Assembly (NCBI RefSeq): GCF_030013595.1
Contig: NZ_CP122769.1
Direction: 5' to 3' (one strand)
DNA from: Escherichia coli
GTDB lineage: Bacteria; Pseudomonadota; Gammaproteobacteria; Enterobacterales; Enterobacteriaceae
DNA length: 64,000 nt
A program made the translations under genes and the position numbers. Each line of letters starts with the position of its first letter. Position 1 is the stretch's first letter. Of the stretch, positions 2,870-54,176 are shown piece by piece. The notes beneath the pieces were generated by a model. The model had not been told where the DNA came from. It was given only the letters and a program-made list of their open reading frames with translations, and ran no database searches.

Positions 2870-3847
2870 ATGAAACAAAAATTTAGGGCTACTGCAATAA
2901 GTAGTAATCAACTTAGTTTTTTTTCTATACTCGATATAGATGAAGATGAAATAACGCAAATAGTTGATTCACCCAAAGAGCATTTAAATGATGCTTACAC
3001 GTCCGGATTAAACTTTAAATCAGAAGAAAGTAACATTTCTGAGATAAATTATGATTCTGAAAGGCGTGAAAATCACCTTTATGAAAAATCCAAATTACTT
3101 AAAAATCAGATTTTGCATACAATTAATTTTGCAGCAGAAACAGATTATCTATATACGGTTGAAGAATATAACCCAGATTTGGGTGGTCTGGTAATAGAAT
3201 GGACCCCTGAGGATGTGTATGTTGTTTTTCTATCCGCTATGGAAGAGTCTTTGGAAATCATTAAAGAACTAGTGTTGAGGAGAAAGTTATTCTTCAAAGA
3301 TGACAATGGTAATATCACAGTGAATCCACTTTTAGAAGCTGAAACACGGTGGTATATGTCAAAATCATTTGAATACACTTGTTTATCTCATGGACTTGAT
3401 GCATGTGAATTTAGAGCGGAATTAAAATCATGGCTCTATTATCATTCGCATCGTTCGATTAGTGAAAACACGAAATTAGCTGAATGCAGGAATGATGATG
3501 AAATCATTTTGCATGATTGCAATGACGATATGGGCTGGGACATCTTCTTTGATCAGGATTATTTAATGTCAGAAAAAAAACTGGCTGTTAAATGGACTGA
3601 CAGGGAAATTATGGATGTTTACATAAAAGCTTTTAAATCCACATTAGAGTTGTTTGACGAGCTTGTTTCATGTGATCTGTTAACTAAACGAAACGCTTTT
3701 GGCAAGTTAGAAATCAATCCAATATTCGAAAATCATTTTGAATGGATCATGTCTGAAGCTTTTGAAATAGTGGGAAATCATCTTGGTTATAATGTGCCTC
3801 AAATCAGGAAACTGATGGCAACTATTTGCCAAATGAATCTCAAATAA
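2870..3847 (+). CDS. hypothetical protein
   Basis: 325-aa ORF, co-directional with neighbours, preceded by stem-loop and GGAG-like RBS. No recognisable motifs. Confidence 0.5.
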   Translation: MKQKFRATAISSNQLSFFSILDIDEDEITQIVDSPKEHLNDAYTSGLNFKSEESNISEINYDSERRENHLYEKSKLLKNQILHTINFAAETDYLYTVEEYNPDLGGLVIEWTPEDVYVVFLSAMEESLEIIKELVLRRKLFFKDDNGNITVNPLLEAETRWYMSKSFEYTCLSHGLDACEFRAELKSWLYYHSHRSISENTKLAECRNDDEIILHDCNDDMGWDIFFDQDYLMSEKKLAVKWTDREIMDVYIKAFKSTLELFDELVSCDLLTKRNAFGKLEINPIFENHFEWIMSEAFEIVGNHLGYNVPQIRKLMATICQMNLK

Positions 3848-5320: not shown

Positions 5321-6458
5321 GGAGAAACCCATGACTTTAAATACTTCAATGCTTAACAAAGTATCTGCAAAACAAATCTCTGAGAATTTTGCAAAATCAT
5401 ATCCAGATTTACTGGAAGGTGCAGTTATAACAAAAATTGAAATAAGTGGCTGTCAAGGATCGCGTCGAACCGATAAAATCGATTTGTCTTATGATGGAGA
5501 TGATATTACGGATCAAAAAAGCGTATCTAAAAGCGAAGTACGCTGGATTGACATAAAAGCCCTTAGCTTCAAAAGTACGATTACCAGCAGAATATCAACT
5601 CTTTGCTCACGCTTGTGCATCCGCTATAGCAATATGTGGATTTTACCAGTATCCAGTATGGAAGAGTTTCTGGAAGGGGCCCAAGAGATTGAACGAGAGT
5701 TTCAGGCAGGTATTCAAAACGTTGTAGACAATTATGAGATGCATATTGAGGCTGAAAAAAATAGAAGCCCAAGAATGTCTTCTTTGATTGATCAGTTGAA
5801 ATTAACTAAAGATGATTTCATAAAATCCTTTAGATTTAATATTGCTCACTTTATTCCTTTTACGCCTATTAGCGTTGAAGGTGATGAAACCCAGGACTAC
5901 TATCAGGAACAATTGATAACAGATCTGGCAGAAGAAGCAATGAAGGTTTATGAAAAAATTAGCAAAAATAACAATTTGCGCTCAAGTACTATTGACCGAC
6001 TGAAGCAAATGCAAAATAAGATCATTAGCTTCATGTTTATACATAAAGAGGCGGCAGTACTTGCAGAAGCTATAAAACACATAATGAATAATTTACCTAA
6101 AGGTGCCATTTCTGAACCTCGCGACGTTGCGGTGTTACAGCAGTGGTTTTATTTCATGAGTGATGCTTCAATGTTAAAGCGTATTATTTCAGGAGAGCAA
6201 AAGGTTACTGACTGGTTGGAATCTATTACCAGATCATTTAATCAAAGCTCACAAACAGAACCGAACGCGCTACAGAACACAGGTATTGAAGCTATTTTAG
6301 ATTCAACAAATGTGTTCCAGGTTGAACCTGTCGTAGAGAACGATATAAATAACAGCACGTTTTCAAACACTGATCCTGTAGCTGAACCTGAGAAATCAGT
6401 TTCGCAACAGGAAGACAATGTTGAAAATTGTTTTGATATCGAGCTCAAAGGCTGGTAA
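5319..6458 (+). CDS. hypothetical protein
   Basis: 379-aa ORF between the AAA+ ATPase and vWA genes; no recognisable motifs. Position suggests it belongs to the same module. Confidence 0.5.
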   Translation: MEKPMTLNTSMLNKVSAKQISENFAKSYPDLLEGAVITKIEISGCQGSRRTDKIDLSYDGDDITDQKSVSKSEVRWIDIKALSFKSTITSRISTLCSRLCIRYSNMWILPVSSMEEFLEGAQEIEREFQAGIQNVVDNYEMHIEAEKNRSPRMSSLIDQLKLTKDDFIKSFRFNIAHFIPFTPISVEGDETQDYYQEQLITDLAEEAMKVYEKISKNNNLRSSTIDRLKQMQNKIISFMFIHKEAAVLAEAIKHIMNNLPKGAISEPRDVAVLQQWFYFMSDASMLKRIISGEQKVTDWLESITRSFNQSSQTEPNALQNTGIEAILDSTNVFQVEPVVENDINNSTFSNTDPVAEPEKSVSQQEDNVENCFDIELKGW

Positions 6459-6477
6459 CTGTTTGCTTTATTAAAAA

Positions 6478-6520
6478 CCCCAGATGGGTACTTCACCATC
6501 TGGGTGAGTACCCCTTTTTT
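6478..6520 (+). terminator. intergenic stem-loop with two mutually exclusive pairings followed by T6
   Basis: CCAGATGG/CCATCTGG and GGGTACTTCACC/GGTGAGTACCC alternative stems, then CTTTTTT; lies between stop at 6458 and ATG at 6536. Confidence 0.5.
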
Positions 6521-6535
6521 ATAAAGAGGTATTCT

Positions 6536-13016: not shown

Positions 13017-13688
13017 ATGAATGCTATACAAAAGTTAGTTGAATCTATTCTTGTTAAAATGGGTTTTGTTGGCGCTGTAGTGGAAAATATATATTTGGAT
13101 TCAAAACCATTTCGGCATATTCGATTTGTGGCTGATATTCCAGTAATATCTTTTCTACCTCATTTGGTGAAATATCTTAAGGGTGCAGACCATCTTTACA
13201 GTGGTAACGATGATTTGCATCCTCTTTTCATTTATTTTTCCGAAGCGGCTACATTAAAAGCAGGTCCTGTAAATCTCGCGAACTTTCGTTTTGAAGTTTC
13301 TATAGCTTCAACTCATTTACGACTGGTCTCAGAGCAGCCTGATTTGCTTTTCAAAGGATTTAACCGGGATAATCTAGAATACGTTTATTACCGCTCAGAT
13401 TTGGCCTCTAGGGATCTTATACTAGGCCTTGTTGAACACGGTTCTCCTTTCATAAAACATCTACATGGACTTATACAAAAGCGAATTTTAAACGAGTTCT
13501 CTCTGATTTTTTCTGTTCTTGAAAAGATTTTAGAAAGCGCGAAGCCACAAATTCTTGCTTGCTTCCATAGTGTTGATTATGAAATGAACGTAAAAATAAT
13601 AGCCGAAGCTATACCTGAAACTGTATCTAATCAGATAGTCACATCTGATTATATAGTTAATGTTAGCGCCAATGATATAAGACTGTAA
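13017..13688 (+). pseudogene. 5' part of a gene interrupted by the IS21-family element
   Basis: Stop codon TAA (13686-13688) lies inside the first bases of the IS end TGTAATTCGCC; the reading frame resumes in the same frame after the element (15787 onward). Confidence 0.5.
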
Positions 13689-13761
13689 TTCGCCATTTGG
13701 GTTGTCCGCTCCACCCAACATGTTGTTTCCTTGAGGTTCTCACACCAGAAAGGACATCGAC

Positions 13762-15731
<1,970 letters not shown>

Positions 15732-15786
15732 TCAAATAGCGGACATTAAAAATGGCGAAAACCGGCCATAAATCTTGGCGTTGACA

Positions 15787-26154: not shown

Positions 26155-27708
26155 TTAGTTTTCAACTAACTGAACGACGACCAGCCTGCCGCCTTCCTCC
26201 TTTGACAGAACAAACTGAGCGTTATTCGTCAGTTCAATTTTTTCCCCAATGGCAATCTGTCGTTTATCCGGTAATGACATAAGCCCATTTATGCCTTCAT
26301 TTACTAACCACCACTGATCGTTATGGAAAACAAAATACCCAACTCGTTTCCTTTGTGCATCGGTTGTGCGCTCATTTGGCGCAATGAGGCGATTCACATG
26401 CCACGCATAGATTGACTGCCCGCTCCACACCATCAACCGGTGGTCGTCAGGACGATAACTGCCTTCCTTTCGGGATGAATATAAATTTAGAACCGGTAAT
26501 TTACCCTTGTATGGCGTACCGCAGTAGGGACAAACCGGCTTTGTCTTACCTGAGAAAACGTACCATTTCTGTTCACACGCCTTGTTCTGGCAGGGCTGTA
26601 TCAGATCGACTGTTTTAACCAGGGCACTTTCCCACTCATCGGCGGTCGGGCGTTTATTGGCATCGTGTAAGCCATCAATAAAGGCGCGTTCAAACAAAGG
26701 CGTCAAATAAGGGCCCATGATGGTGTAAGGAATTTTCTCCGGGTCAGCCCAGGGCAGTGAAAAGGAGGATATCTGACTGACTTTGACTGCATTGCTTTTG
26801 TCTGTCGGATGTTCAATGAAGAGTGCCTTCTCACCCATAGATAAGGTCTCATCACGTACTTCATCCGACATGTCATGTATTTTTCCGCCACGTAGCGGAT
26901 GACGGAAGAACAGATACATGTAGATAAGCACCGACAGCGCATGACGGTCAGTAGAAATGCTTGGCAATACGCGGTTCGGATCCTCTTTGGAAAGATGGCT
27001 GGTTTTCACCACTTCCGGAGCGATAAAATCCGGGGTGCCCACGACGTCGGGAGGATACTTTCCAGGGACAACCAGGCCGTCTACGTCAATGATGCAGGCA
27101 TGTCCCATTTCTGGATCGATAAGCACGTTTTTATAGCTTAGATCGCTGTGACAGAGACCTGCCGCATGCATCCTTCTGACGGCTCTTGTTAGCAGCAGAC
27201 AGACCTTGAGATAGGTAAGCGTATTGCCTCGTTCACGTGGGTCGAGAAATTTATTCTGGTTGCTGGCGCTGGCAAACCATTTGCCTTCCTTTTCACGGCC
27301 TTTTATGCCAAGAAAATCATCGTTTTTAGAGCCGTATTTAAAGAAAAAGTAGCTTTTGTAGGTTGGAACCACGATGCCGATTTTATCCCCATGCTCAACA
27401 ACGTGGGTCGGCCAGCAAAACAGGTCCTTCCAGTATTCACCTCCGGACTGGCCAAAAATGTTTTGCCTGTAGCGTCCGGTGATCATATCAATCCGATCCC
27501 GGGCCTGCTCGTTCTGCGGTTTATGATAAAAAGCGACGACGTATGATTTATCAGGCGAGAAGTAAACATCCTTCATCGAGCCCGAACCAATTACCTCGTC
27601 AACATACTGGACTGTTTCGCCGTCCTTTGTTTTGCACGTAACAATATTTGCCATATTGATCACCGAAGAAGCGTATCCCTTACCACAACACCGCAATAGT
27701 GCGGTCAT
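26155..27708 (-). CDS. Hanks-type serine/threonine protein kinase with C-terminal zinc-ribbon
   Basis: Gly-rich loop VIGSGSMKDVYF, catalytic loop HSDLSYKNVLI, IDVDG (DFG-equivalent), GTPDFIAPEV (APE motif); CQNKACEQ...CPYCG zinc ribbon. Alternative start at 27654 (MANIVTCK). Confidence 0.8.
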   Translation of the reverse strand: MTALLRCCGKGYASSVINMANIVTCKTKDGETVQYVDEVIGSGSMKDVYFSPDKSYVVAFYHKPQNEQARDRIDMITGRYRQNIFGQSGGEYWKDLFCWPTHVVEHGDKIGIVVPTYKSYFFFKYGSKNDDFLGIKGREKEGKWFASASNQNKFLDPRERGNTLTYLKVCLLLTRAVRRMHAAGLCHSDLSYKNVLIDPEMGHACIIDVDGLVVPGKYPPDVVGTPDFIAPEVVKTSHLSKEDPNRVLPSISTDRHALSVLIYMYLFFRHPLRGGKIHDMSDEVRDETLSMGEKALFIEHPTDKSNAVKVSQISSFSLPWADPEKIPYTIMGPYLTPLFERAFIDGLHDANKRPTADEWESALVKTVDLIQPCQNKACEQKWYVFSGKTKPVCPYCGTPYKGKLPVLNLYSSRKEGSYRPDDHRLMVWSGQSIYAWHVNRLIAPNERTTDAQRKRVGYFVFHNDQWWLVNEGINGLMSLPDKRQIAIGEKIELTNNAQFVLSKEEGGRLVVVQLVEN

Positions 27709-44478: not shown

Positions 44479-44864
44479 GGTTGCGATCCGCTTTCAGGAG
44501 GGAGTAGTAGAAAGGGGACTGGAAATTTCAGAAAGCAGGTCATGTTAATTCAGACCTGAGCCTTTTAAAGGCAGGAAACGGATTTATCTCTGGTTGCTGG
44601 TTAAAGCCGGTATTCCGTGCCTTTTATCAACAGAATGCCCCTCTGATATATGTTACTTTTGCGGTTTATGAAGGAACGGGATCTGGAACATAAGATACCC
44701 GGTCAATCAAAATTCCAGTTCAACAGGTATAGAAACTTCAGCGTGATGAAATATGGTGTCACACCATATATACGCCTCACCAGAAATCCAGCGTCCTGAA
44801 CTAAGCCTGGGGAACATATATAAGCGCTGCGCTTTAAAAATAATCAAAAATCAGGAGAGTTAAT

Positions 44865-46106
44865 GTGAATCTACAATCCGGACAAAACATACCGCTTCAG
44901 CAATCTGCGATCAGGCTGAATCTTCAGTACCCTGCCAAATCCGGCTTTAAAGGCGAACCCGATACCTGCCTCTTCCTGCTTAATGCTCAGGGAAAGGTAA
45001 CCGGCGATTCTGACTTTATCTTTTATAATAATCTGTCTTCTCCTGAAGGGGCAGTAAAGCTCGTTACCGGTTCTCAGCAGTCCAGCATTGAGATAGCACT
45101 GGATCGTGTTCCGGCGAACGTCAGTAAGATTGCGATCACCGTTGTCATTGATGGTGAAGATACTATCAGTGGGCTCAGTTTATTGAGCATTCAGGCTCCT
45201 GGTATCGCTGATTTTCAGGCTGAGACTCAGGGCCGCAGTGAGAAAGCAATCATCCTGGGTGAAGTATATCGGCACAATGGCGCCTGGAAGCTTCGTGCGC
45301 TCGGGCAGGGTTTCAACGGTGGTCTTGAGCCTCTGGCCATTAGCTTTGGCGTTGATGTCGCACAGCCAGCTCCGCAGCCAGCAAAGCCCGCTCGTATCAG
45401 TCTGGAAAAGAAACTTGAAACCAGATCTCCGCGCCTCGTAAGCCTCGCTAAAAAAGCCTCGGTCAGTCTCACTAAAAATAAACTGGACACCCTTGAGGCA
45501 GCGGTTGCATTTGTACTTGACGCATCCGGCTCAATGAGTGGCCAGTTCAGTAAGGGCAACGTTCAGTCTGTGCTGGACCGCATCGCCGTTCTTGCCGCCC
45601 AGTTCGACGACGACGGTGAAATGGATGTCTGGGGATTTGGAGAGAAGCACAAGAAGTATCCAAACGTCACACTGGACAACCTGGACACATATATTCAGTC
45701 CATTCGCGGGTCTGGAAAGCGTTCAGCCTGGGAGAACCTGCCGGGACTTGGTGGGACAAACAATGAGCCCCCTGTGATGGAAGAAATTGTCGACTACTTT
45801 AAGGACTCGAAAATCCCGGTATATGTTGTATTTATTACCGATGGCGGGATCAGCAAGACCCGGGCGATTAAAGATGCAATCCGGCGTTCTGCCAACTACC
45901 CCATCTTCTGGAAGTTTGTCGGCCTGGGTGGTTCAAGCTACGGTATCCTCAAAAATCTGGATGACTTTACTGACCGCCGGGTTGATAACACCCACTTCTT
46001 TGCCATGGATGATTTCGGTTCGATCAGCGATGAAAAGTTATATGATAATTTACTGGAAGAATTCAGACCGTGGATCGATGAAACAAAAAGGTTAGGCATC
46101 CTGTAA
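44865..46106 (+). CDS. terF: TerF: TerD-like N-terminal domain fused to vWA-like C-terminal domain, GTG start
   Basis: GTG start with RBS CAGGAGAG; N-terminal TerD-like region ([14 protein letters not shown]); C-terminal MIDAS-like LDASGSM and FITDGGIS. Confidence 0.8.
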
Positions 46107-46668
46107 TACGCACAGTTTTCGCATGGTTAAAGGAGCTCTACAGCAGCTTAATACTGTAGAGCCTTTGTTCACTGGAAATCGTACAGGGAGGAGCATATGG
46201 ACCGCATCAAGTACCTGAAATGGATAGCTGAAGAATCACCAACTGATGATGAAATCGACAACTACGATAGTATCATTAGTCGGGGCGCAGAAAGGGCCGA
46301 GAAGGTTCAGTTGTCTTTAAGACGTTAATATACGGGAGTTTAAATGTTCGCAGAAATCAAAGATAATTATTCGTTAGGTGGATAAAGAAAGGTTGCCATT
46401 ACCAGCTTTCGACGAGTCGAAAATAAAAACCTTATTTATAGTGACAGGGAGTATGAGCTGACGCTTGCCAATGGAACAATAATTAAAAATGTACTTAGAA
46501 AAGAAGAGTGGGAACTGTTAGAAAGCAATTCAATTAAGGTTATATTATAACGAAAATATATTTACAGTTTTGGATAGGTTTCAAACGAGTCCGGACATTT
46601 GTACCTGAAGTATCTGACATTACAGTTAAGTGACGATTATGTCAGCACGTCTGTTGCTGGCAGCTTAG

Positions 46669-46950
46669 CTATCGGTCTAAAAGCTGATCCATTAATAATT
46701 CTTCGTAAAGCCCAGAGGTATCGGGCTTTATTACAATATCCGTTATTTCGAAGCGTTCAAGTACAAATTGCAGATATTCCGGAGTAACGTAGTAGGGATC
46801 AGGTTCAGCCAGATTAGTATAGAGTGGGTCTTCTGCTGCATTAATGTCATAATCAATGCACATATGAAACCACTGCAAAGGTGGATCCCAGCCTAACATC
46901 ACCTGAACAATTCCCTGATTGCTTTTCACCTCATACCAGTGCTGGCTCAT
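46669..46950 (-). CDS. hypothetical small protein
   Basis: 93-aa ORF; no recognisable motifs. Confidence 0.3.
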   Translation of the reverse strand: MSQHWYEVKSNQGIVQVMLGWDPPLQWFHMCIDYDINAAEDPLYTNLAEPDPYYVTPEYLQFVLERFEITDIVIKPDTSGLYEELLMDQLLDR

Positions 46951-46999
46951 ACTTAGTCCTTAAGAAAATTTGTCATCGGAAAATAACACGAAGCCTGCA

Positions 47000-47191
47000 T
47001 CATCGAGGCGCATAACCTTCTTCCCTTAACGCCTGTTGTAATTTATCAACTGCGCTTTTCATTACCCAGGCTTCTTCGTCACTCACAGCACAACCACGTA
47101 GATCGCTCCAGCTCAGACGTTTAACAAATTGAGCAAGGGCCATAGTTTCGTTCTCATCAAGCCGCAAACTCAGTGTCTCAATACCTTCCAC
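47000..47191 (-). CDS. hypothetical small protein
   Basis: 63-aa ORF upstream of and co-directional with 46669-46950; no recognisable motifs. Confidence 0.3.
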   Translation of the reverse strand: MEGIETLSLRLDENETMALAQFVKRLSWSDLRGCAVSDEEAWVMKSAVDKLQQALREEGYAPR

Positions 47192-47282
47192 TATCTAACC
47201 TCCCTTATAATGAAAAATGGCGCTTTACTTCTGACCAGATGCCGAAGCCTTGAATGCAGCCGGAACTGTCGTTGTTTCTACT

Positions 47283-47654
47283 TTACAGAAATGGAATTAA
47301 AAAGTGGTGATGCTGGGCACGTTTCTTTTCCAGCCGGGGTTTAAGCCAGAGCTGAAACTCATTCAACTTCTCAGCAGCCAAAACCGCTTCAACGGGGAAA
47401 ACTTTATATTTACCCTGTTGCTGAGGTTCACCCAGCCATCGCCTGATGGCTCCGTCAGTCCATAAACGAGTCTCTTTTAGCCTAGTTACAGTGACCCATT
47501 TTCTGGACCATTCATCAAATTGTCGCTGGCGATCCCGATAACGTTGTTCTTCCTGCTGCCGAAGCCACTCGCGATCAACAGCAAATTTTCGGTATCCAAC
47601 AAAGAGCCCTTGTACTTTGGCCATGTCATATTCCGGTTGCTTAGAGTTACTCAT
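47283..47654 (-). CDS. hypothetical protein
   Basis: 123-aa ORF, basic and Arg/Gln-rich; no recognisable motifs. Confidence 0.35.
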   Translation of the reverse strand: MSNSKQPEYDMAKVQGLFVGYRKFAVDREWLRQQEEQRYRDRQRQFDEWSRKWVTVTRLKETRLWTDGAIRRWLGEPQQQGKYKVFPVEAVLAAEKLNEFQLWLKPRLEKKRAQHHHFLIPFL

Positions 47655-47957
47655 TCAACCAAAACCTAAACGTCGATACAAACTCTGTTTCATAACCAGG
47701 GTTTTATCCTTACCGCGACAGTAAGTAACAGGGGCTGCATAAACCGGTCATTTAGTCCGTTATGCAAAAATTATTGAGGATCCGGGCTGTTAAACTGTTC
47801 TTCCTCTTTCGCTTCCGGTGAAAAGGGGAGGTGTCACCCTGCGAGCCCGTGTAGTGAAAGGGATTCGTCGTAATACAGGCCAAAGGCTAACATGACCGCA
47901 AAGGACGCCCGGGCGACCGGATACCTGCCGGGTTGTGCGATGTAAAATCCGGAAGCA

Positions 47958-48389
47958 GTGATAACACAAACAGGCCCCTACAGCGTAAGGATTGTGATGG
48001 ACGATAAAGAGCAGTTTACGAATCTTGTGGCAAAGCATGCCTCCGGACTCACCGAAGAGCAGCTGGCCGGGTACGATGCCTGTTCCCTGGATGGTGAATG
48101 CGTCACGCCTTCATACGAGGTTTTCCGGGGGTATCGTACCCGCCACACACTGGATGAATTTCTGGAGATGGCCATATCGCTGAATGCCATCCACCCGGAT
48201 GAATATTTAACGGATATGCTGCTGAAGCCTCATGAGGTGATCGGCGCTCTGGCCGATGAAGGCGACCAGCTGAACAACGCCACCCCGGTTTATTTCTTTC
48301 CGGATACCGGCGTCTATGCAGCGGCCGTTAGTGAAACCCGGGTGCTCGATGCCTGGCTTTGCTGGCCATGCTACCCGGCGAACTGGTAA
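47958..48389 (+). CDS. hypothetical protein
   Basis: 143-aa ORF; the internal ATG (MDDKEQF) may be the true start. No recognisable motifs. Confidence 0.3.
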   Translation: MITQTGPYSVRIVMDDKEQFTNLVAKHASGLTEEQLAGYDACSLDGECVTPSYEVFRGYRTRHTLDEFLEMAISLNAIHPDEYLTDMLLKPHEVIGALADEGDQLNNATPVYFFPDTGVYAAAVSETRVLDAWLCWPCYPANW

Positions 48390-48457
48390 CGCGGCCGTTG
48401 GAATTGCACCGGCCGGATACGAATTTAACCGACCCCGTGGCGGGAAGGCTATCAGAG

Positions 48458-48710
48458 TTGCATGTCCTCATCCCTCAAGCCCCCTGCCAGGCCCCAACGT
48501 GCTGTCAGGCTTCGCCTGATTCCCGATCTGCGCCGATACTTCAGCCGATAACTTTTTGTTTTCTTTTTATTTTCTTCCCATCTCCTCAAAAATCGCGGGC
48601 GGCGTGGACAGGGCACCATTGCCGCATGTGGGGTCTTAATAAGGGCAGGGTGGTCAGTTTTGCTCGATGCCAGGGGTAGGCCCTCCCCTTCATGGGATGA
48701 GGACATGCAA
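48458..48710. repeat. 253-bp segment bounded by a perfect 17-bp inverted repeat (TTGCATGTCCTCATCCC / GGGATGAGGACATGCAA)
   Basis: Inverted repeat read directly from sequence at 48458-48474 and 48694-48710; interior is non-coding. Confidence 0.35.
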
Positions 48711-48862
48711 GTAAGCTAACTATCTGAAATGACGAAGGTTCATTTGGTGAATGTCGCTTCATATTAATGTTGTGTCACTTATGATCGTATGTAGCTGGTT
48801 GCAAAGAGGAGCGATGAGACAATAAAGTTGTATCGCTAACAAGATTTATGCTGCCACATAGT

Positions 48863-48960
48863 AACAGCCTAAAAGTTGTACGCCCTATTTAACAGCTTTT
48901 AGGCTGTTAATTTGATATTACAGCTTTTAGGGTGTATGTTTAGGAAACAGCCTGCAAGGT
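48863..48960 (+). promoter_or_regulatory. hipBA promoter/operator region with repeated ACAGCYTW-type palindromes
   Basis: Palindromes AACAGCCTAAAAG..., AACAGCTTTTAGGCTGTT, ACAGCTTTTAGGGTGT, AACAGCCTGCAAGGTGT; embedded TTGATA - 17 bp - TATGTT (48912-48940) promoter-like hexamers. Confidence 0.45.
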
Positions 48961-48989
48961 GTATCAGAGGAAACTACTGAGGCCAGCTT

Positions 48990-49286
48990 ATGATCAATAA
49001 TGATTACCCGTTAAACACGCTCAACCAGCTGCGTCCCTTGCTCATTGGTTTTCGCAAGGCGAATGGCCTGACGCAAAAAGACCTGTCCGAAAGGTTAGGC
49101 GTCACTCAACAGACATACTCACGTCTGGAAGCCAACCCTGCCAGTGCGAGCATTGAACGGCTATTCAAGGTGTTTTCCATCCTGGGCGTAAAAATCAGCT
49201 TCTCCTCGGCAACCACCTCTTCAGAGAGGAAGCAGACGGAAGAAATGCTTAAATCAAACTCACCTGCACGACAGGAGGATTGGTAA
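48990..49286 (+). CDS. hipB: HipB antitoxin (Cro/C1-type HTH)
   Basis: HTH segment GLTQKDLSERLGVTQQTYSRLE; immediately upstream of hipA with 4-bp gap. Confidence 0.85.
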   Translation: MINNDYPLNTLNQLRPLLIGFRKANGLTQKDLSERLGVTQQTYSRLEANPASASIERLFKVFSILGVKISFSSATTSSERKQTEEMLKSNSPARQEDW

Positions 49287-49290
49287 CGAT

Positions 49291-50616
49291 ATGAGCCGGA
49301 AACAGCAACGTCTGGTAATTTGGATGAACGGCATCAAAGTCGGGTACTGGGAAAAAAGCAAAGGGGTAGACAGCTTAGAATACCTTCCTGAATGGGTTGC
49401 TGACGAACAGGGAAGGCCGCTGTCATTGTCCCTTCCTTTTACTCCCGGGAACCAGGTCTGGCGTGGAAATGTGGTACGTGACTATTTTGATAATTTACTG
49501 CCGGACAGCGAAGGCATACGCAGACGTCTGGCAATGCGTTACAAGGCCGATAGCCTGGAGCCTTTTGATCTGCTGACGGAGCTGGGAAAAGACTGCGTGG
49601 GCGCGATACAGCTGCTTCATGACGGAGATGAACCCACTGATTTATATTCCGTGAAGTATCACCCGCTTACTGAATCAGAAATTGCGGCAACTTTGCGTAA
49701 TACCACGGAGACATTGCTACCGGGCAGGCCAGAAGATAACGACGACTTACGTTTATCTATTGCCGGTGCTCAGGAGAAAACAGCCCTACTGTGGCATGAA
49801 GATCGGTGGTGTATGCCGGAGGGTAATACACCAACGACGCATATATTCAAGCTACCGCTCGGACTTGTGGGGAACATGAAAGCCGACATGAGCTCGTCGG
49901 TTGAAAATGAATGGCTCTGCTCGGTACTTCTCGGCCAGTACGGGCTCCCCGTGGCAAGAACGCAGATTGCTCACTTTGAAGATCAGAAAGCGCTGGTGGT
50001 AGAACGTTTTGACCGAAAATGGTCAGGAGACGGACAATGGATCATTCGTTTACCCCAGGAGGATATGTGTCAGGCCCTGGGCGTTTCGCCATTACGAAAA
50101 TATCAGGCGGACGGCGGGCCAGGTATATCGGAAATTATGGAGGTTCTGAGTAATTCAGACCGTGCTGAGCGTGACAAAGCGCAGTTTTTTATGACGCAGA
50201 TAATTTTCTGGATGATGGCCGCAACAGATGGCCACGCTAAAAATTTCAGTATTTCTATTGGGCCACAGGGACGTTATCACCTTACACCAAACTATGATGT
50301 GTTGTCGGCATGGCCGGTGATCGGTCATGGGAACAATCAGATATCCTGGCAGAAGTGCAAACTGGCGATGGCCGTACGTGGCAGTAGCAACTATTACCAG
50401 ATATATCGAATACAACGACGCCACTGGATCAGGCATGGTGAGATAACCGGCCTGAGTAAACAGCAGACAGAGGCGATGATAGAGGAAATCATCGCCAGAA
50501 CCCCGGGTGTCATTGAACGTGTTAGCGGGCTTCTTCCGGACCAGTTCCCCCAGCAGCTTGCGGAAAGTATTTTTGATGGAATGAGGCAGCAATGCAGGCG
50601 CCTGGCTGAGAAATGA
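49291..50616 (+). CDS. hipA: HipA serine/threonine kinase toxin
   Basis: Colinear with E. coli HipA including SIAGAQEKTALL, VERFDR, RLPQEDMCQ and ATDGHAKNFS motifs. Confidence 0.9.
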   Translation: MSRKQQRLVIWMNGIKVGYWEKSKGVDSLEYLPEWVADEQGRPLSLSLPFTPGNQVWRGNVVRDYFDNLLPDSEGIRRRLAMRYKADSLEPFDLLTELGKDCVGAIQLLHDGDEPTDLYSVKYHPLTESEIAATLRNTTETLLPGRPEDNDDLRLSIAGAQEKTALLWHEDRWCMPEGNTPTTHIFKLPLGLVGNMKADMSSSVENEWLCSVLLGQYGLPVARTQIAHFEDQKALVVERFDRKWSGDGQWIIRLPQEDMCQALGVSPLRKYQADGGPGISEIMEVLSNSDRAERDKAQFFMTQIIFWMMAATDGHAKNFSISIGPQGRYHLTPNYDVLSAWPVIGHGNNQISWQKCKLAMAVRGSSNYYQIYRIQRRHWIRHGEITGLSKQQTEAMIEEIIARTPGVIERVSGLLPDQFPQQLAESIFDGMRQQCRRLAEK

Positions 50617-52598: not shown

Positions 52599-52654
52599 GG
52601 GTGATGATGCCAACTTACTGATTTAGTGTATGATGGTGTTTTTGAGGTGCTCCA

Positions 52655-52930
52655 GTGGCTTCTGTTTCTATCAGCTGTCCCTCCTGTTCAGCTACTGACG
52701 GGGTGGTGCGTAACGGCAAAAGCACCGCCGGACATCAGCGCTATCTCTGCTCTCACTGCCGTAAAACATGGCAACTGCAGTTCACTTACACCGCTTCTCA
52801 ACCCGGTACGCACCAGAAAATCATTGATATGGCCATGAATGGCGTTGGATGCCGGGCAACCGCCCGCATTATGGGCGTTGGCCTCAACACGATTTTCCGC
52901 CATTTAAAAAACTCAGGCCGCAGTCGGTAA
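52655..52930 (+). CDS. insA: IS1 InsA
   Basis: 91-aa product with zinc-finger [10 protein letters not shown]...CSHCRK and HTH, matching IS1 InsA. Confidence 0.9.
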
Positions 52931-53352
52931 CCTCGCGCATACAGCCGGGCAGTGACGTCATCGTCTGCGCGGAAATGGACGAACAGTGGGGATACGTCGG
53001 GGCTAAATCGCGCCAGCGCTGGCTGTTTTACGCGTATGACAGGCTCCGGAAGACGGTTGTTGCGCACGTATTCGGTGAACGCACTATGGCGACGCTGGGG
53101 CGTCTTATGAGCCTGCTGTCACCCTTTGACGTGGTGATATGGATGACGGATGGCTGGCCGCTGTATGAATCCCGCCTGAAGGGAAAGCTGCACGTAATCA
53201 GCAAGCGATATACGCAGCGAATTGAGCGGCATAACCTGAATCTGAGGCAGCACCTGGCACGGCTGGGACGGAAGTCGCTGTCGTTCTCAAAATCGGTGGA
53301 GCTGCATGACAAAGTCATCGGGCATTATCTGAACATAAAACACTATCAATAA
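52849..53352 (+). CDS. insB: IS1 InsB (expressed as InsAB' by -1 frameshift)
   Basis: 167-aa frame overlapping insA 3' end; sequence matches IS1 InsB. Confidence 0.85.
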
Positions 53353-53510
53353 GTTGGAGTCATTACCGGCAGCATCAACTACATCGCAAGCAGTAAGAGT
53401 AAGTGACGATGCCACAGCAAGACACAATAAAGAAAATCTGTTTTTGAACATATTTGAGACCTTTTATAAAAATAAAATAACAGGAGAATTGTATCATTAA
53501 CAGTCTAGTT

Positions 53511-54176
53511 CTAACGACTACCACTTTTAAGTATGTATTGAGCCAGTTTTATATTCAGGCACACCATATTGCACTCTAGCTCTTTCATCATTCTTGAAGA
53601 ACTCTTAATTAAGTATTCTTCAAGTGGGCCAGCATATGCCCCTGATGTCACGATCGTTAGTTGCGTAAGAGGATGAGTCAAACTCTCAATGCCCTTCAGG
53701 ATGTCATTCTGGACAGCAGCAATATAAACAGGCGAAGCCGCAATCAAATATTCATCATTCGGGCTGGACTGCATTAACTGGCTTATAGTTGCGCAACGGT
53801 TATGCTTACCTAGTGATTTTGTGATGGCTTTCCACCAGAGATCATGCCTGAATGGTACTTGATGAAATGTCGCCTCGTAAGAGGGCACCCGATCTCGACT
53901 ATTTAAAAACCCCATCCCGGCAGAGATTATCCACAACTCCAGATTTCTGGTTGAGTTTAAAATTTCCTTTGCCGTAGACCAGTGATTACCTGAATACAAG
54001 GACAATGCCGGTACCGCCTGATTACTTCTGGCGTCGTCTACAATGTTACTCCAGGCATATGCTGCGTCGTCCGGGGTTTGTTTTGGATCTATGTCCAATG
54101 TCGGCCAGACGTGGCCCTGATGATTCTTGCCCTTTGTACAGGAAGTGATTAAGTGTACTGAGCGTTCAGAGAACAT
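53511..54176 (-). CDS. hypothetical protein
   Basis: 221-aa ORF downstream of and co-directional with 54234-54614; no recognisable motifs. Confidence 0.45.
   Translation of the reverse strand: MFSERSVHLITSCTKGKNHQGHVWPTLDIDPKQTPDDAAYAWSNIVDDARSNQAVPALSLYSGNHWSTAKEILNSTRNLELWIISAGMGFLNSRDRVPSYEATFHQVPFRHDLWWKAITKSLGKHNRCATISQLMQSSPNDEYLIAASPVYIAAVQNDILKGIESLTHPLTQLTIVTSGAYAGPLEEYLIKSSSRMMKELECNMVCLNIKLAQYILKSGSR

Follow-up and report, generated by a model that had tools for sequence, protein, structure and literature searches.

The interval between terF and hipBA (46107-48457) in a 64,000-nucleotide stretch of the Escherichia coli contig NZ_CP122769.1 (assembly GCF_030013595.1) contains four small genes, which we refer to as open reading frames (ORFs) A to D. 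This whole stretch is referred to as the window and all positions without another source are positions in it. Our preferred reading, to which we assign a probability of roughly 0.6, is that the interval is a mosaic junction of independent accessory genes of conjugative elements, in which ORF-C encodes a DNA-binding protein and ORF-D is linked to transfer. Under this reading the interval on this IncHI2 plasmid would not be one functional system. On its left side an island of ter genes would end approximately 65 nt past terF, on its right side the ancestral IncHI backbone would resume at ORF-D and a 253-bp inverted-repeat unit, and the space between the two would be filled by ORF-C, ORF-B (a member of the DUF7706 family) and ORF-A, which would represent three unrelated families.

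ORF-A, ORF-B, ORF-C and ORF-D are real genes under purifying selection. Homologues of conserved length, at 22-80% identity, exist for each of them, and each carries a signature of purifying selection. Selection was assessed using pairwise Nei-Gojobori counts against diverged DNA copies, which yielded either a ratio of nonsynonymous to synonymous divergence (omega) of 0-0.35, or saturated synonymous sites with a nonsynonymous divergence (dN) of 0.12-0.38. Lack of conservation in related sequences, which the initial annotation of this region had named as grounds for abandoning its interpretation, does not apply, since each of the four is conserved and under selection. Judged from their distribution among sequenced elements, the four families move independently among conjugative plasmids and integrative and conjugative elements (ICEs), and none of them has a conserved partner.

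Probable mosaic structure of the terF-hipBA interval

Nucleotide comparisons identify the window as the backbone of an IncHI2 resistance plasmid. Bases 46000-48900 are 100% identical to hundreds of IncHI2 plasmids of E. coli, Salmonella, Enterobacter and Klebsiella, and 1478 records in PLSDB match at least part of this segment. A comparison with pME-1a, an IncHI2 plasmid of the R478 type, yielded four collinear blocks (44801-46242, 46898-47645, 47682-48710 and 48841 onward), and pME-1a has large insertions relative to the window between positions 47645 and 47682 and between positions 48710 and 48841. The first two blocks are separated by an AT-rich block of 655 bp (46243-46897, GC content 0.37-0.40) which carries most of ORF-A and in whose place R478-type IncHI2 plasmids have 548 unrelated bp. 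The left part of the AT-rich block (to 46616) is 81% identical to the flank that follows terF in the Citrobacter plasmid pCIAM-1. A start-less frame on the plus strand in this part (approximately 46386-46550, ending …NKNLIYSDREYELTLANGTIIKNVLRKEEWELLESNSIKVIL and a stop codon) matches an annotated 69-aa ORF of pCIAM-1 and is probably a pseudogene remnant.

Homology to the ter islands of E. coli chromosomes stops at approximately position 46171, about 65 nt past the stop codon of terF. In IncHI1 (pHCM1) and IncHI1B plasmids the gene order is a tyrosine recombinase, hha, two hypothetical genes (which we call X and Y), ORF-D and the inverted-repeat unit, while in IncHI2 the ter island and ORFs A to C are inserted into this order between the upstream gene Y and ORF-D. 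The block structure, the end of the ter island and the ancestral IncHI gene order therefore suggest that the interval is a junction of differently derived pieces and not an operon-like unit.

The left flank of the interval is terF (44865-46106, plus strand), which encodes a 413-aa protein with TerD and vWA-TerF-like domains in Pfam. The right flank is formed by hipB (48990-49286, plus strand; HTH_3) and hipA (49291-50616, plus strand; Couple_hipA and HipA_C), which together make up the neighbouring type II toxin-antitoxin (TA) locus hipBA. The initial annotation had placed four ORFs between these flanks, and this location is confirmed by the ORF coordinates, by RefSeq and by the Pfam domains of the flanking genes. 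It had given lengths of 93, 63 and 123 aa for three ORFs on the minus strand and 143 aa for one on the plus strand. All four are present, but the true lengths of the third and fourth are 113 aa and 130 aa. RefSeq annotates five hypothetical genes between the TerD/vWA gene and hipBA. One of them is a 43-aa ORF (46197-46328, plus strand) with a strong Shine-Dalgarno sequence, GGAGGA, in front of it. The R478-type lineage has just the first 16 codons of this ORF in common with the window, and there the same ATG begins an unrelated ORF of 151 aa. In this comparison the RefSeq ORF is not kept as a 43-aa protein, and it is probably a truncated or hybrid remnant.

Four unrelated gene families

ORF-C (47283-47624, minus strand) encodes a basic protein of 113 aa (pI 10.3). 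The 123-aa version runs to position 47654, while the ATG at position 47624 is the start used by all 15 of the 15 aligned homologues and by RefSeq. An AlphaFold2 model of the protein (mean predicted local distance difference test score (pLDDT) of 85) consists of a long helix, a winged helix-turn-helix and a C-terminal helix, with modelled elements at residues 43-45 (strand), 46-52 and 57-63 (helices), 68-70 and 73-77 (strands) and 78-85 (helix). The core topology of the MerR/excisionase fold, i.e., a strand, two helices and a beta-hairpin wing, is present in this predicted model. ORF-C is thus predicted, with good confidence, to be a winged helix-turn-helix protein of the MerR/excisionase type. 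In its predicted core topology, its similar size and its basic charge it resembles AlpA/Xis, TorI, RdfS and the DNA-binding domain of pSK1 Par. Its family also resides on mobile genetic elements, sometimes beside relaxase or integrase genes, as is seen for small MerR-like and excisionase proteins of such elements. ORF-C would be a small DNA-binding protein with an accessory role in transcription or DNA processing, and it may control the co-directional set of ORF-C, ORF-B and ORF-A.

Homologues of ORF-C with 50-67% identity, which keep the exact length of 113 aa, were found on Klebsiella IncHI1B plasmids and on mobile elements of Xenorhabdus, Vibrio and Brenneria. Omega is 0.05 against the R478-type lineage, and against the Xenorhabdus, Vibrio and Brenneria copies dN is 0.30-0.38 with saturated synonymous sites. 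The homologues have different neighbours at each locus. The gene order in the Brenneria ICE is KfrA_N, a 330-aa gene, the ORF-C homologue, a 75-aa gene, a TraI_2 relaxase and an integrase. On the Klebsiella IncHI1B plasmids the homologues lie beside a DUF1778/GNAT pair; this TacAT-like pair is situated two genes past the ORF-C homologue (positions 5781-6532 of locus L079), and there is none in the interval of the window. Plasmid PCN061p4 encodes a 95-aa relative of ORF-C (36% identity) directly after mobF, where it adjoins a convergent DUF7706 gene. DUF7706 was considered as a partner of ORF-C and rejected, as the small genes that follow ORF-C homologues do not belong to DUF7706.

ORF-B (47000-47191, minus strand) encodes an acidic protein of 63 aa (pI 4.65) and starts with a GTG codon behind the sequence GGGAGG. 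It matches the Pfam family DUF7706 (PF24806) with an E-value of 1e-25 and a score of 89.9 bits (the cut-off being 27), across positions 7-63 of the 63 in the model. The other members are likewise small proteins of plasmids and ICEs (63-70 aa), but the family has no known function, so that membership names ORF-B without explaining it. A tblastn search found DUF7706 homologues of ORF-B in 2744 plasmid records, including pOXA-48 and plasmids of 31-38 kb of the MOBF/MPF_T type, and a member is also present in one MOBH ICE. Omega for ORF-B is 0.35, a value based on seven substitutions, and comparison with the MOBF plasmids gave a dN of 0.22 with synonymous saturation. In pOXA-48, a five-gene operon located beside umuDC and pemIK ends with DUF7706, whose product is among the most abundant plasmid proteins detected by proteomics (bioRxiv 10.64898/2026.07.12.738056). 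Elsewhere in the window (53523-54164, minus strand) there is a gene for a 214-aa DUF6884 protein that is 40% identical to the 227-aa product of a gene in the same pOXA-48 operon; on this sequence match, DUF6884 is another gene family common to IncL and IncHI2 plasmids. GNAT acetyltransferase genes come up repeatedly in the vicinity of such small genes: besides the DUF1778/GNAT pair described above, MOBF plasmids have one 12 nt upstream of DUF7706 (positions 3205-3687 of locus L008). No such gene is present in the interval of the window. A weak match of ORF-B to designed alphaRep repeats was taken as chance.

ORF-A (46669-46950, minus strand) encodes an acidic product (93 aa, pI 4.05) and is preceded by an AAGGA Shine-Dalgarno sequence. 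Its homologues, which are exactly 93 aa in length and 68-80% identical, occur in large plasmids, where they are surrounded by many small ORFs, and in a 35-kb plasmid of O157:H7. Synonymous changes affect 49-52 of approximately 56 sites, while dN is 0.12-0.20. The R478-type IncHI2 lineage has no ORF-A yet keeps ORF-B and ORF-C, which, on the sequences compared, makes ORF-A dispensable in that lineage. Neighbours of ORF-A homologues include genes of 151 aa and 122 aa; the first is not related to the 151-aa ORF of R478-type plasmids and the second is not related to ORF-C. A weak match of ORF-A to CDP-diacylglycerol pyrophosphatase (E-values from 0.006 to 0.4) was taken as chance.

ORF-D (47997-48389, plus strand) encodes an acidic protein of 130 aa (pI 4.26). 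The 143-aa version begins at a GTG codon at position 47958; the start is instead the ATG at position 47997, which lies behind an AAGGA Shine-Dalgarno sequence and agrees with RefSeq. Sequence comparisons identify ORF-D as a backbone gene of IncHI1, IncHI2 and IncHI1B plasmids, across which omega is 0 to 0.20. A word-indexed search recovered close relatives only, while an exhaustive profile search yielded a family of 25 clusters (at 50% identity) that includes full-length relatives at 22-39% identity. The family has a C-terminal motif, VYFFP..G.YA..V..VWLSWP.YP.GW. In a chromosomal ICE, 4 nt separate the ORF-D homologue from a downstream TraI_2 (MOBH) relaxase gene, and the homologue closes a co-directional cluster in the order DUF7706, Antirestrict, ArdC, RNase_T, ORF-D homologue and TraI_2; this cluster is known from one ICE type in two genomes. 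Its DUF7706 protein is 33% identical to ORF-B (E-value 7e-11). The cluster also includes genes of 93 aa and 112 aa that match ORF-A and ORF-C, respectively, in size, but neither is a homologue. Another ORF-D homologue has trbI on one side and a TraW-like gene on the other, within an operon for an F-type type IV secretion system (T4SS), and a relative on a MOBF plasmid lies at the end of a long array of small genes. These contexts suggest a link between ORF-D and the conjugation machinery of the MOBH/F type. ORF-A, ORF-B and ORF-D would be small, acidic, non-enzymatic proteins that most likely bind other proteins during transfer of the element or its establishment in a new host.

The initial annotation reported no recognisable motifs in any of the four ORFs. 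This fails for the 63-aa protein, given its DUF7706 domain, and holds for the other three in profile searches. Searches of Pfam, PHROGs, NCBIfam, PADLOC and PDB sequences gave no match for ORF-A, ORF-C or ORF-D other than weak ones that were taken as chance, namely the pyrophosphatase match of ORF-A and a similarity between ORF-C and the C-terminus of JetB (E-value 6.6e-5 across 39 residues).

The inverted-repeat unit and other features of the window

A non-coding unit of 253 bp (48458-48710, plus strand) with perfect 17-bp inverted ends begins 68 bases past the stop codon of ORF-D, just beyond the end of the interval covered by the initial annotation. Its arms are TTGCATGTCCTCATCCC at 48458-48474 and GGGATGAGGACATGCAA at 48694-48710 (17 of 17 bp), and they form the only such inverted pair in the window. 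The unit is present in IncHI1, IncHI2 and IncHI1B, i.e., in every IncHI lineage examined, and always lies directly after ORF-D in IncHI plasmids. It is found as a single copy in 1451 plasmid records, and ORF-D in 1450. The left two-thirds of the unit are near-invariant, with CCCTGCCAG, the hairpin TCAGGCTTCGCCTGA, GTTTTCTTTTTATTTTCT and TTCGCG.GCGG as invariant blocks. The variation and indels of the right third argue that the unit is non-coding. Alignments also removed the two ORFs it could encode (29 codons on the plus strand and 84 aa on the minus strand), as stops or indels interrupt both of them in other lineages.

We consider it possible, though short of probable, that ORF-D and the unit form a functional module of the IncHI backbone, in which the unit acts in cis as a structured plus-sense RNA (a 3' untranslated region or small RNA) or as a hairpin in single-stranded DNA (ssDNA). 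Such a role may, for example, be in stabilisation or processing of the mRNA, in priming or in recombination. The nearly one-to-one occurrence of ORF-D and the unit is consistent with a module, as is the preservation of the arms, which are perfect or one base off in lineages whose interiors differ by 20-28% (these lineages were found by BLAST and not by their arms). Right flanks of four different kinds abut exactly the outer end of the unit's right arm. The predicted fold points to the plus strand (z = -5.2; minus strand, z = -2.5), 97.9% of cells in the consensus structure are paired compared to 28-43% in slid controls, four pairs have compensatory changes (a number reached in 3 of 500 shuffles) and about six pairs are G-U pairs on the plus strand only. 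However, the covariation support is thin because 33 of the 48 pairs never vary, the consensus structure was derived from the same sequences used to test it, and the copies from metagenomes were selected by their exact arms. The unit had no match in Rfam, it is absent after distant ORF-D homologues, and neither a promoter-like site (-35/-10) on either strand nor a terminator consensus was found within 48458-48710. Our best guess, at moderate-to-low confidence, is that the unit forms the 3' end of the ORF-D transcript as a structured RNA of plus sense. The same inverted ends, enclosing approximately 220 bp of non-coding DNA, together with the break in homology between lineages exactly at the unit's right end, could instead point to a miniature inverted-repeat transposable element (MITE) or to the ends of a decayed insertion sequence. 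This we regard as extremely unlikely and we rejected it on copy number and on a scan of a genome collection. There is one copy per plasmid at a constant location in the 1451 records, and among approximately 100,000 species genomes the arm 17-mer occurs as 17 unpaired singletons in unrelated taxa, which is roughly the chance expectation. No target-site duplication is visible in the flanks and no parent element was found.

The Frpo and ssi single-strand promoters of plasmid leading regions are known elements that the unit calls to mind, as it is approximately 250 nt in length and one of its strands has a predicted fold into a long imperfect hairpin. Unlike them, it has no -35/-10 consensus, lies downstream of ORF-D rather than preceding a gene, and is in no known leading region. 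In the literature, the arm sequence matched unrelated primers only.

Some further features of the window were recorded. Just upstream of hipB (48862-48965) there are four operator-like repeats, ACAGCCTAAAAGTTGT, CAGCTTTTAGGCTGTTAA, CAGCTTTTAGGGTGT and ACAGCCTGCAAGGTGT, which from their sequence and position are probably HipB operators. Relative to the near-identical plasmid pCFS3273-1, the window has a 2.1-kb insertion (13662-15786) encoding a 390-aa protein with rve and Mu-transposase-C domains and a 266-aa IstB-like ATPase, gene content that identifies it as an IS21-family element. The window also has no counterpart, at approximately position 27135, to the ISApl1-mcr-1-pap2-ISApl1 cassette (approximately 4.7 kb) that pCFS3273-1 carries there. 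Collinearity with pCFS3273-1 breaks at 52600-53367, where approximately 7.8 kb of that plasmid, including a helicase gene, are missing from the window. In R478-type plasmids the same helicase block is located between ORF-C and ORF-D. The block appears to be movable because it is differently placed in R478-type plasmids and in pCFS3273-1.

Alternative functions and significance

The initial annotation had raised the idea that a cluster of short genes beside hipBA could contain further TA pairs or anti-defence proteins. That ORF-C and ORF-B, or ORF-B and ORF-A, are additional type II TA modules is very unlikely. Like hipBA, the four ORFs are small neighbouring plasmid genes, but unlike a type II TA locus they have no conserved pairing, no overlapping or tight junction and no toxin or antitoxin homology. 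ORF-C, ORF-B and ORF-A share a strand, yet the gaps between them are 91 nt (ORF-C to ORF-B) and 49 nt (ORF-B to ORF-A) and each gene has its own Shine-Dalgarno sequence. In most contexts the families occur apart from one another and have no conserved neighbour, and the R478-type lineage, as described above, has two of these genes without the third. The pair in PCN061p4 is convergent, and a related plasmid has no ORF-C-like gene. ORF-D is acidic and likewise has no conserved partner; weak RelE-like matches of its structure model were not used as evidence as the model is unreliable. TA pairing is not supported because the families are unrelated, occur apart from each other and without partners, and gave no match to models of toxins, antitoxins or defence systems in searches of Pfam, NCBIfam and PADLOC.

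The suggestion of anti-defence proteins fared somewhat better. It remains unlikely, in our judgement, that ORF-A, ORF-B and ORF-D are anti-defence or establishment factors that counter restriction or other immunity of the host on entry. In its favour, the co-directional genes immediately upstream of the ICE relaxase gene include DUF7706 and an ORF-D homologue together with Antirestrict (PF03230) and ArdC. The three proteins are also small and acidic (pI 4.05-4.65), as are many DNA-mimic and inhibitor proteins. Furthermore, the DUF7706 gene of pOXA-48 is a neighbour of umuDC, and the leading-region genes that Samuel et al. (2024, PMC11541004) analysed include umuD/umuC homologues; these authors describe many uncharacterised small gene families beside anti-defence genes in leading regions. 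The islands in that study resemble the present genes in that they consist of small, often uncharacterised, co-directional genes common to unrelated conjugative elements, and the ICE with DUF7706 and an ORF-D homologue alongside ArdC, Antirestrict and a relaxase provides a second point of likeness. They differ in that the IncHI2 genes, as read from the collinear reference plasmid, adjoin no transfer gene, face both directions and have no Frpo-like promoter nearby. The cluster association comes from that one ICE type, co-occurrence with anti-defence genes elsewhere involves ORF-B and ORF-D only, and ORF-A has no such association. Searches of Pfam, PHROGs, NCBIfam and PADLOC linked none of the proteins to ArdA, KlcA/ArdB, ArdC, Antirestrict, Acr, PsiB or another known anti-defence family, and the locus adjoins no transfer gene in the collinear reference IncHI2 plasmid. 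Two or three of the genes may plausibly serve in anti-defence or as accessories of transfer.

Several observations weigh against a mosaic of transfer-linked accessory genes. The associations of the four families with relaxase, T4SS and anti-restriction genes come from a handful of loci and not from a systematic count. The distances to transfer genes were read from pCFS3273-1, the collinear, near-identical IncHI2 reference plasmid, in which the nearest Tra2 gene ends approximately 47 kb upstream of the locus and there is no relaxase within 65 kb downstream of it. The structure model of ORF-D is unreliable (pLDDT 56.6), having been built from an alignment of four sequences that is too shallow. 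In addition, none of these ORFs has an expression value of its own in the supplement of an IncHI2 RNA-seq paper.

In Salmonella and E. coli, IncHI2 plasmids are major carriers of mcr-1, oqxAB and extended-spectrum beta-lactamase genes, and to our knowledge most genes of their backbone have no known role. The interval adds no TA system to the inventory of the plasmid, which is a useful result even if the other readings fail. The region is ordinary plasmid "dark matter", which the initial annotation was right to mark as uncharacterised, and the inverted-repeat unit is the sole feature that might repay a small experiment. Being single-copy, the unit is a cheap deletion target and a possible IncHI marker. 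It is doubtful, and rather more so than an IncHI module as such, that ORF-D and the unit are an undescribed module of all IncHI plasmids for the processing or establishment of conjugative DNA and that DUF7706, ORF-A and ORF-D are likewise new anti-defence or establishment proteins. If true, the module would pair a structured plus-sense RNA or an ssDNA hairpin with a small acidic protein whose relatives are associated with MOBH relaxases and F-type T4SSs. The four selected genes are common to ICEs and to other plasmid families (pOXA-48, IncHI1 and MOBF plasmids), and two of the four associate elsewhere with relaxases and anti-restriction genes. They therefore provide a short, testable list of candidate factors that may aid the transfer or establishment of large resistance plasmids.

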